Below are positions 29,704 through 33,656 of a stretch of 64,000 nucleotides of DNA, piece by piece (the first letter of the stretch is position 1; each line of letters begins with the position of its first letter). The stretch lies in NCBI RefSeq assembly GCF_054482595.1, contig NZ_CM137008.1. One strand, written 5' to 3'. The notes under the pieces are model-generated. The model was not told the origin of the DNA. It saw nothing but the letters and a program-made list of their open reading frames with translations, and did no database searches. A program made the translations under genes and the position numbers.

Positions 29704-31065
29704 GTGGAAAAAGAAAATATCACCCTCGATCCGCGTTCTTCATTTACTCCATCTTCGTCGGCAGATATTCCCGTGCCACCAGATGGATTAGTTCAACGCA
29801 GTACCCGAATTAAACGCATTCAAACCACCGCCATGTTGTTATTATTTTTTGCGGCGGTAATCAATTATCTCGACCGCAGTTCGCTGTCGGTAGCAAATTT
29901 AACGATTCGTGAAGAATTGGGATTAAGTGCCACCGAAATCGGCGCTTTGCTCTCCGTGTTTTCACTCGCTTACGGGATTGCGCAACTTCCTTGCGGCCCA
30001 CTATTGGATCGTAAAGGCCCACGCCTGATGCTGGGACTGGGGATGTTCTTCTGGTCACTGTTCCAGGCAATGTCTGGCATGGTGCACAACTTTACGCAGT
30101 TCGTGTTGGTGCGTATCGGTATGGGGATTGGTGAAGCGCCGATGAACCCATGCGGTGTAAAAGTCATTAACGACTGGTTCAACATCAAAGAGCGCGGACG
30201 CCCGATGGGCTTCTTCAACGCAGCTTCTACCATTGGCGTTGCCGTAAGCCCACCGATTCTGGCGGCGATGATGCTGGTGATGGGCTGGCGCGGGATGTTT
30301 ATTACCATTGGTGTACTGGGGATTTTTCTCGCCATCGGCTGGTATATGCTCTATCGCAACCGCGAGCACGTAGAACTGACTGCCGTTGAACAAGCTTATC
30401 TCAATGCAGGTAGCGTCAATGCCCGCCGAGATCCGCTCAGTTTTGCCGAATGGCGCAGCCTGTTCCGTAACCGTACAATGTGGGGAATGATGCTCGGATT
30501 CAGTGGCATCAACTACACTGCGTGGCTGTATCTGGCCTGGCTTCCTGGTTACCTGCAAACAGCCTATAACCTGGATTTAAAAAGCACAGGGTTGATGGCG
30601 GCTATCCCTTTCCTGTTTGGGGCTGCCGGGATGCTGGTCAACGGTTACGTTACTGACTGGCTGGTCAAAGGGGGAATGGCTCCGATTAAAAGCCGTAAGA
30701 TCTGCATTATTGCCGGGATGTTCTGTTCTGCCGCCTTTACGCTGGTCGTACCACAAGCGACAACATCCATGACGGCGGTTCTGCTGATTGGCATGGCACT
30801 GTTCTGTATTCACTTTGCCGGAACATCCTGCTGGGGCTTGATCCACGTCGCAGTTGCTTCTCGCATGACTGCGTCGGTGGGCAGTATCCAGAACTTTGCC
30901 AGCTTCATCTGCGCCTCTTTTGCGCCGATCATTACTGGTTTTATTGTTGATACCACCCACTCATTCCGTCTGGCACTAATCATCTGCGGTTGCGTCACCG
31001 CAGCGGGGGCATTGGCGTACATCTTCCTGGTTCGTCAGCCGATCAACGACCCACGGAAAGATTAA
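29704..31065 (+). CDS. lgoT: MFS L-galactonate transporter
   Basis: 453-aa 12-TM ORF with GTG start. Confidence 0.85.
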   Translation: MEKENITLDPRSSFTPSSSADIPVPPDGLVQRSTRIKRIQTTAMLLLFFAAVINYLDRSSLSVANLTIREELGLSATEIGALLSVFSLAYGIAQLPCGPLLDRKGPRLMLGLGMFFWSLFQAMSGMVHNFTQFVLVRIGMGIGEAPMNPCGVKVINDWFNIKERGRPMGFFNAASTIGVAVSPPILAAMMLVMGWRGMFITIGVLGIFLAIGWYMLYRNREHVELTAVEQAYLNAGSVNARRDPLSFAEWRSLFRNRTMWGMMLGFSGINYTAWLYLAWLPGYLQTAYNLDLKSTGLMAAIPFLFGAAGMLVNGYVTDWLVKGGMAPIKSRKICIIAGMFCSAAFTLVVPQATTSMTAVLLIGMALFCIHFAGTSCWGLIHVAVASRMTASVGSIQNFASFICASFAPIITGFIVDTTHSFRLALIICGCVTAAGALAYIFLVRQPINDPRKD

Positions 31066-31113: not shown

Positions 31114-32778
31114 TTAAAACGTTTCCCAGTTCTCCTCGCTATCTGCCACGACCATTTTACGCGGCGCAGCTGGCGTCACGGTTTTTACCACAGCCGATGT
31201 TTCACGCTGCTGTTGCTGCTGTTGCTGAATCCGGAACACTGCCACAGCTTCGGTCAGGCGACTGGCCTGCTCTTCCAGCGCGGCGGCGGCAGCGGCAGAC
31301 TCCTCCACCAGCGCAGCGTTCTGTTGAGTTACCCGGTCCATCTCAGCAACCGCTAAGCCAACCTGATCGATACCACGGCTCTGCTCATCAGAAGCAGAAG
31401 CAATTTCGCCCATAATGTCCGTCACGCGGGTCACGGCGCTGACAATCTCCGCCATTGTTTCCCCGGCGCTTTCGACCAGCGTAGAGCCAACATCCACTTT
31501 CCCCACCGAGTCTTCAATCAGGCTTTTAATTTCACGAGCCGCCTGGGCGCTGCGCTGGGCCAGATTACGCACTTCTCCCGCGACCACCGCAAAACCGCGC
31601 CCTTGCTCACCCGCACGCGCAGCCTCAACCGCCGCGTTCAAAGCCAGAATATTGGTCTGGAAGGCAATGCCGTCAATTACGCTGATAATATCGGCGATTT
31701 TCTGCGAACTGGTGGAGATATCGCGCATAGTCTGCACCACGTTATCTACCACTTTGCCGCCGCGTTGCGCCGTTTCAGAAGCACTTAACGCCAGATGGCT
31801 GGCCTGGCGCGCATTCTCGGCGTTCTGTTTCACCGTTGCGGTCAGTTGCTCCATGCTGGCTGCCGTCTCTTCCAGCGAAGCGGCCTGTTGCTCGGTGCGC
31901 GAAGAGAGATCGTTATTGCCGGTAGCGATTTCGCTGGCACCGCTATAGATGGCATTGGCCCCGTTGCGCACATCACCGACGGTACGCATCAGCTCTCCCT
32001 GCATATGGCGCAAACTCTCTGCCAGTTGCCCCATCTCATTAGAGCCATCCACCTCAATCGGTTTCACCAGATCGCCGCCTGCAATATGACGGATGCTGTC
32101 AATCAGGCGATTCATTGGCGCTACCAGCGAGGCTTTAATACCGAACCAGACGGCGAAGATGACCGCCAGTACGACGATCATCACGCCCACCAGAATCCAC
32201 ATCGCCTGGCTGTAGGAGGCATTGTTATCGCTGACGGCGATATCATAGAGCCGATCGTTTTGCTCCATGTAAGCCACATACTGCTTCTCGAAACCGTCTT
32301 GATATCCCTGGGTCGGCTGATCAAAGAACTCGTTGATTTTGCCTGCACCTAACAGTTGGATCAGCTCCGCCAGCGCATTGTGATAAATATCGTAATTACG
32401 TTTGATCTCTGCCGCTGCGGCGGTGCTCTGACGCGGGTCACGCGGCAACGCTTCGTAATCCGCCCAGTTTTTTTCCGCCTGTTTCAGCGAAATACTGGCA
32501 CTCTGCATCAGCTCAGCAACGGTTGAACCGCTACCAATATTATTCTGATCCATCATGTAGCGGATACCCGCGCGGTTGAGGGTGTTACGCGTCTGCAACA
32601 ACGCGACCCAGCTGCCATTCAGCGTGGATTGCTGCTGGCGAATGGTTTGTAAAACAGTGAAATTTTCTTTGTCATTCTTTAAGGCATTAAAGAACAGACC
32701 GCCTGATGTCAGTTGTAAAAGGCCAAAAACGGCCAAAACCAGCAGTAAGCTGGTCACGATCTTGATACGTTTTAACAT
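31114..32778 (-). CDS. tsr: methyl-accepting chemotaxis protein I (serine receptor)
   Basis: 554-aa [26 protein letters not shown]... ending ...NWETF (CheR-tethering pentapeptide); contains a 7-Gln tract. Confidence 0.95.
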
Positions 32779-33005: not shown

Positions 33006-33395
33006 ATGTTAAACCGTGACTTCGATCATCTCTCAACGCTATTACATCTCTTTTTTGAACGTGAGGATATTTGCCAAAAGCTTAATATTATTGACCAAAA
33101 CAATATCACCGGTTGGGAAGTGTGGTTCCAGGTAGAGTTTGCTAATATGCTCTGCTCAACAGACCATGAATGGTGGCGTGAACAAGCACTTTCCTGTGAT
33201 ATGCGCAAAAAACCTGAGCGCCCGACACTACGCACAGATTTCTTACTACGTAAAAAAGGCTGGGCACAAGATAGCTATATCACGCTTGAAATAAAACAAA
33301 ACAGAGACGCGACCAGTTGTGTTAAAAATATGATCGCAGACTTAGAAAAAAGCGCAAAAATAAAACGTTCCGAACTCGATTTACGCAGTTTCTGA
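33006..33395 (+). CDS. hypothetical protein (possible small PD-(D/E)xK-like fold)
   Basis: 129-aa ORF with SD AAAGGA 9 nt upstream, in an AT-rich stretch between tsr and btsT; D...LEIK acidic/Lys pattern. Confidence 0.4.
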   Translation: MLNRDFDHLSTLLHLFFEREDICQKLNIIDQNNITGWEVWFQVEFANMLCSTDHEWWREQALSCDMRKKPERPTLRTDFLLRKKGWAQDSYITLEIKQNRDATSCVKNMIADLEKSAKIKRSELDLRSF

Positions 33396-33656
33396 ACCTT
33401 GGGTATCACCCCTATGATAGACAGGGAAAGGCTGGACTCTCTCATCGATTGCTATTTAGATGAGAAATTTTATCTTACTAAATCTCGTAAAAAACACGTT
33501 TTACTTAAAGAAATAAATAACACACCATATTGCTATATTGTTATTTAATATTTATAGCATGAATATAATTTTTAAATGAGTTACACAACCGAGGGCTAAA
33601 AATCGCTTCGGTTGTGATCATCATCACATAAATAACCTTCATAAACCTTGCTCAAA

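Follow-up and report, generated by a model that had tools for sequence, protein, structure and literature searches.

The tsr gene and its glutamine tract

The window, a stretch of 64,000 nucleotides from contig NZ_CM137008.1 (RefSeq assembly GCF_054482595.1), carries on its minus strand (31114..32778) an open reading frame of 554 codons plus stop that, judged by its sequence, encodes the serine chemoreceptor Tsr (methyl-accepting chemotaxis protein I). Pfam recognizes in it, in order, TarH (PF02203; residues 1-176, 9e-55), HAMP (PF00672; residues 217-263), and MCPsignal (PF00015; residues 327-484, 2e-62). The gene is 100% identical to the annotated tsr of many RefSeq E. coli genomes and is orthologous to K-12 tsr by both sequence and synteny, with lgoT downstream and btsT-yjiX-yjiA upstream. 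A sequence-only reading of the window had named the gene tsr, and the domain order and the identity to annotated genes bear this out. The protein terminates in the pentapeptide NWETF (31117..31131, minus strand), which sits on a nonconserved linker and to which the adaptation enzymes CheR and CheB dock (PMC7390727, PMC4692393). Among the Tsr proteins of Enterobacteriaceae, the linker varies between genera and NWETF is retained.

Within the linker, ahead of the NWETF tail as the translation confirms, lies an in-frame run of seven glutamines, Q518-Q524, encoded on the minus strand by CAG CAA CAG CAG CAA CAG CAG (31207..31227). What remains of the nonconserved, flexible C-terminal linker, R525-E549, occupies 31132..31206 (minus strand). 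The 21-nt tract, cagcaacagcagcaacagcag (= CAGCAACAGCAGCAACAGCAG), occurs only once in the window, at minus strand 31207-31227. It had earlier been placed at 31206-31226; the tract, its strand, and its frame were correctly described, with the coordinates shifted by one base.

The tract was also described at first as a CAG/CAA trinucleotide repeat, and this description does not hold. The real unit is 9 bp, CAGCAACAG, and the tract is composed of two such units followed by CAG. Unit 1 (31219..31227, minus strand; Q518-Q520) is delimited by pairwise alignment with K-12, and unit 2 (31210..31218, minus strand; Q521-Q523) by Tandem Repeats Finder, which gives 2.4 copies of period 9 with 100% matches, and by the positions of a repeated 12-mer. 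This 12-mer, CAGCAACAGCAG, occurs twice, at 31207-31218 and 31216-31227, the two copies overlapping at an offset of 9 nt. The partial third unit, the CAG of Q524 (31207..31209, minus strand), completes the overlapping 12-bp direct repeat and with it a possible site of misalignment. The tract is not a chance feature: a (CAR)7 run appeared in none of 100 dinucleotide-preserving shuffles. Nor is it a pure CAG polyglutamine expansion tract, since CAA recurs every third codon, its alleles step by three codons (4, 7, and 10 glutamines), and the fold is no better than that of shuffled sequences (z = +1.38).

A second coding repeat lies elsewhere in tsr at 31280-31298 (minus strand), with the unit GCGGCA as read on the plus strand, a period of 6, and 3.2 copies. 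It encodes an alanine run just ahead of the final helix segment. In contrast to the glutamine tract, it is constant in length in all E. coli alleles that were fetched and in other Enterobacteriaceae.

The genomic neighbourhood

The downstream neighbour of tsr in the window is lgoT, encoding an MFS galactonate transporter (29704-31065, plus strand), as it is in K-12, O157:H7, and HS. In IHE3034, F11, LF82, ET734, and S87, the corresponding neighbour is a pair of TRAP transporter permease genes. Alleles with 4, 7, and 10 glutamines are found in both contexts over the eight loci compared. In ECCWS199 (frameshift) and LR-58-1 (internal stop), the lgoT gene beside tsr bears a pseudogene annotation.

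On the other side, the gap between tsr and btsT contains a 129-aa open reading frame (MLNRDFDHL...; 33006-33548, plus strand). In the identical genome XH990, RefSeq treats the same stretch as the pseudogene of a hypothetical protein, interrupted by an internal stop, and in K-12 the gap holds no annotated gene. In KSC207, one of the strains with an identical tsr, a whole hpa (4-hydroxyphenylacetate) operon lies between tsr and btsT. Beyond yjiA, at the position of the K-12 mrr/hsd "immigration control" region, the window carries (at about 37535-41590) a gene for a 3'-5' exonuclease, part of a gene for a type I restriction endonuclease, symE, and a gene of the GmrSD family (type IV restriction). 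Of the 5,426 complete E. coli genomes, only some 100 share 80% or more of the 8.2 kb upstream of tsr.

Comparison with K-12

The tsr gene of MG1655 (NC_000913.3, b4355) encodes 551 aa, the length that the sequence-only reading had given for K-12, and its tract is CAGCAACAGCAG, encoding four glutamines. Apart from a 9-nt indel the two genes are 99% identical in nucleotide sequence, with 15 nucleotide substitutions and three amino acid changes (Q92E, Y178H, and V543A). The indel, the only one, lies inside the tract: K-12 is without one 9-bp unit, and which of the two copies is missing is indistinguishable. The earlier suggestion of a three-codon difference fitting slippage is in keeping with this alignment, and the objection that K-12 might have the same tract length falls away, given four glutamines in K-12 against seven in the window.

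Length alleles among complete E. coli genomes

Of the 5,426 complete genomes, 5,382 were matched by a 97-nt query that covered the tract, with alignment spans of 97, 88, and 106 nt defining three length classes. The corresponding tracts are 21, 12, and 30 nt, encoding 7, 4, and 10 glutamines (hereafter 7Q, 4Q, and 10Q), and so the alleles differ by whole units. By exact matches to short queries, 7Q is carried by approximately 4,050 genomes (about 75%) and 4Q by 1,208 (22%). Since the collection is redundant, rich in derivatives of K-12 and BL21 and in clinical clones, these percentages are counts of genomes rather than population frequencies. A further 75 genomes match the 7Q query only partially, which points to a longer tract. 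The 10Q class was counted from such partial-coverage matches together with the alignment span of a 90-nt query, which at least 60 genomes match over its full length, including HS, LF82, NRG 857C, and O104:H21. The 10Q alleles that were fetched encode 557 aa and have three CAGCAACAG units followed by CAG. When a 13Q query was used, 7Q alleles aligned to it as two perfect pieces and tied at the top rank.

A fourth class, found by a more sensitive search in about 40 genomes (e.g., LR-58-1 and ETEC O6:H16 strains), has an interrupted tract, CAG CAA GAG CAG CAA CGC CAG, encoding QQEQQRQ in a protein of 554 aa. No allele differing by a single codon step was seen among the typed genomes; about nine genomes that carry tsr fall outside the four classes. 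No association with host or pathotype is evident in the lists of matches, 4Q, 7Q, and 10Q each occurring in commensal, pathogenic, and environmental isolates.

The 3' region of tsr was unmatched in 44 of the 5,426 genomes, and the best whole-gene matches in these are only 60-80% identical, presumably paralogues. About 0.8% of the genomes may thus have lost tsr or carry it in disrupted form.

The ancestral length

The nearest outgroup among the genomes listed, SCPM-O-B-8794, is labelled E. coli and serves as the representative of a separate GTDB species. Its tsr is 10.6% divergent, encodes 554 aa, reads QQAQQRQHEA at the tract, and aligns to 7Q without a gap. No allele resembling that of the outgroup was found among the E. 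coli genomes when they were searched with the outgroup sequence. Farther away, the orthologues of Leclercia, Enterobacter, Citrobacter, Kluyvera, and others have tracts similar to QQ[D/E/S]QQ[K/R] in proteins of 553-557 aa. Within E. coli, the deepest tsr branch is the interrupted allele of LR-58-1; at 10 sites along the gene it agrees with the outgroup where the 17 other alleles all differ. Its tract is 3 nt away from that of 7Q, through the changes GAG to CAG and CGC to CAG.

Since the deepest E. coli allele and the outgroup both encode 554 aa and the other genera 553-557 aa, the ancestral length appears to have been 554 aa. And since 7Q is the majority allele and is colinear with both the outgroup and QQEQQRQ, the 4Q tract of K-12 is best read as a 9-bp contraction and not the tract of the window as an expansion, as the sequence-only reading had proposed. 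This polarity rests on one near outgroup, the sample being without Salmonella, E. albertii, E. fergusonii, and E. marmotae, and one of the patterns in the scan of contigs for outgroups, IQQQQQQQ, favoured long tracts. It could also be, in principle, that the perfect repeat of 7Q came from a 4Q-like intermediate by duplication and not through point changes.

Probable recurrent gain and loss of the 9-bp unit

The distribution of tract lengths was compared with a tree of 18 fetched E. coli tsr alleles, made with the tract removed, and with haplotypes defined by flanking SNPs. The 7Q allele is found in every sampled clade. Four or more backgrounds carry 4Q (the K-12 group, IHE3034, S87, and ET734) and three or more carry 10Q (HS, LF82, and NY1601/O104:H21). 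Outside the tract, IHE3034 (4Q) and SW4848 (7Q) are only 2 nt apart along the entire gene, and IHE3034 retains a SNP specific to its clade 7 nt downstream of the tract. Flanking haplotypes are also shared between lengths: one near the tract is common to NY1601 and O104:H21 (10Q) and to FDAARGOS_401 (7Q), and one downstream is common to S87 (4Q) and LF82 (10Q). Judged from these flanking haplotypes, the change in copy number is homoplasious, and the 9-bp unit appears to have been lost or gained repeatedly.

SW4848 also carries, directly upstream of the tract, a change of codon 516 from CGG to CTG (R516L). Residue 516 is the one treated as the tethering point of Tsr in PMC10561060.

The pattern of alleles points to slippage as the mechanism, and misalignment of the overlapping direct repeats is a likely route by which units are gained and lost. 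Slippage promoted by a hairpin was considered and rejected, as the tract folds as single-stranded DNA no better than its shuffles (z = +1.38).

The tether and the possible effect of its length

Conservation in the Tsr kinase-control domain ends at residue 517, and in K-12 34 more residues follow, ending in NWETF (PMC4692393). Solved or modelled structures of Tsr in the PDB end at residues 516-520. The unstructured tether, which in the high-abundance receptors Tar and Tsr holds CheR and CheB by a linker of about 30-35 residues (PMC4692393, PMC7390727, PMC10561060), therefore begins with these glutamines. In Tar, with flexible chains of 22, 29, 34, and 46 residues, the position fitted for tethered CheR shifts linearly by 0.128 +/- 0.048 nm per residue, and the number of flexible residues is given as 30 for K-12 Tsr and 34 for Tar (PMC10561060). 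By this measure, one repeat unit would shift the reach by about 0.4 nm, and 7Q would give a chain of 33 residues, near the 34 of Tar. The effect of three residues more or less on the reach of methylation and demethylation would be small by the same reasoning. Variation in the length of the tract is thus probably near neutral, with a modest chance that it has a measurable effect on kinetics.

Published figures for the tether follow K-12 numbering (34 residues after residue 517; a "30-aa flexible chain"), and the common natural allele is longer by three. K-12 Tsr (b4355, NP_418775.1; PDB 6S1K, 1QU7, and 8C5V) has the same TarH-HAMP-MCPsignal architecture, the same NWETF tail, and the same downstream neighbour lgoT, but with one 9-bp unit fewer and a tether shorter by three residues it represents a minority form, that of about 22% of complete genomes. 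The structure 6S1K carries this 4Q form. In contrast, the Tsr part of the Af1503 HAMP-Tsr chimera (PDB 3ZX6) shares QQQQQQQ with the window, and structural work has thus already made use of the 7Q allele; 3ZX6 is an engineered fusion, and its tail, which has ATPRKMAVADSGENWETF, differs from that of the window.

Discussion

The most parsimonious history would begin with an interrupted tract, QQ(E/A)QQRQ, of seven codons, the same length as the tract in the window. Two replacements, E to Q (GAG to CAG) and R to Q (CGC to CAG), would then have produced a perfect 9-bp repeat, still within a protein of 554 aa. Thereafter, slipped replication or mispairing of the overlapping 12-bp direct repeats would have altered the number of units many times independently. 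Loss of one unit would have given 4Q and 551 aa, as in K-12, BL21, and IHE3034, and gain of one unit 10Q and 557 aa, as in HS and LF82. The tract in the window, (CAGCAACAG)n + CAG with n=2, is the predominant natural E. coli allele. Every allele retains the reading frame and the NWETF tail, and the sole consequence would be a tether three residues shorter or longer. Taken as a whole, we consider it very probable that the tract is an in-frame 9-bp repeat at the start of the Tsr tether, with 7Q predominant, descended from an interrupted ancestor of 554 aa, subject to recurrent slippage, and probably nearly neutral in effect.

Other readings must be weighed against this history. The perfect 9-bp tandem duplicate in 7Q is just what one would expect from duplication of CAGCAACAG in a 4Q tract, and a gapped alignment of 4Q with the outgroup also looks reasonable on inspection, so that 7Q might be a three-codon expansion from an ancestor like K-12. 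That is highly improbable: 7Q is the majority allele and is represented in all sampled clades, the 4Q alleles are nested beside 7Q alleles nearly identical to them, 7Q aligns colinearly with the outgroup and with the basal E. coli allele, whose tracts differ from it by substitutions and not by a gap, and Tsr in the other genera examined keeps to the length range given above. Alternatively, 4Q and 10Q might each have arisen once and been spread by homologous recombination, with no recurrent slippage. The haplotypes of tsr are indeed mosaic, which favours spread by recombination, and one near-flank haplotype is common to K-12, str73, and str504838 (as another is to the 10Q alleles of NY1601 and O104:H21). 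Against this, four immediate flanking haplotypes accompany 4Q and three accompany 10Q, distinguished by SNPs as near to the tract as +7, -5, and -19 nt. Together with the pair IHE3034 and SW4848, these mean that recombination acting by itself would require conversion tracts shorter than about 30 bp, and a single origin for each length seems to us quite unlikely. Repeated gain and loss of 9 bp is the more economical reading, though since tsr is mosaic, tract alleles may in part be shared by recombination.

A simple repeat within a gene might also call to mind a phase-variable contingency locus or an error of sequencing or assembly. Almost certainly it is neither. With a unit of 9 bp, a change in copy number shifts no frame, and all 18 E. 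coli alleles that were fetched are intact open reading frames of 551, 554, or 557 aa ending in NWETF, hence there is no on/off switching; the identical 7Q sequence in about 4,050 independently finished genomes rules out an artefact of assembly. Selection on the length of the tether, compatible with slippage as the source of variation, is a different matter. Here the gain and loss of units would tune the reach of CheR and CheB and the kinetics of adaptation to lifestyle. The linear movement of CheR with chain length in Tar (PMC10561060), the confinement of Tsr to 553-557 aa across genera, and the recurrence of changes at the tract may all be read in its favour, but the lists of matches show no association with host or pathotype and a change of three residues is small next to a tether of about 30-37 residues. 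Selection of this kind strikes us as rather doubtful. A more specific form of the idea, in which the repeat acts as a "length dial", with chains of about 30, 33, and 36 residues shifting the site of action of CheR and CheB and with it the speed and precision of adaptation to serine, is unlikely.

The preferred history, recurrent slippage in an in-frame repeat, has much in common with that of in-frame coding VNTRs subject to slipped-strand mispairing: a perfect repeat, alleles differing by whole units (1.3, 2.3, and 3.3 copies), and recurrence across haplotypes. Compared with typical coding VNTRs, the tsr repeat has very few copies and few alleles, and it entails no frameshift or on/off switching. 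Among the papers searched, including those on E. coli MLVA and VNTRs, none was found that describes a repeat, a VNTR, or a 9-bp length polymorphism in tsr (two MLVA matches to "TSR" proved to be the name of a reagent and unrelated primers). The 7Q allele itself is already known, being the protein that RefSeq gives for thousands of genomes, and the length polymorphism is variation of an ordinary kind.

The finding has little bearing on the annotation of the genome, since the tsr allele of the window is the standard one and many sequenced strains have it unchanged. The locus does provide a small, clean illustration of the way in which a stable, interrupted sequence can become, by two point mutations, a perfect repeat of unstable length. 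For the study of chemotaxis, it calls for some caution: nearly all quantitative studies have used K-12 Tsr, whose tether is three residues shorter than that of about three-quarters of sequenced E. coli. It has been argued that the Tsr tether (30 aa) is shorter than the Tar tether (34 aa) so as to match the geometry of the methylation sites (PMC10561060). That argument rests on the minority 4Q allele, and the common allele has 33 aa. If the repeat were after all to act as a length dial, then the K-12 reference behind quantitative models of chemotaxis would have an atypically short tether.
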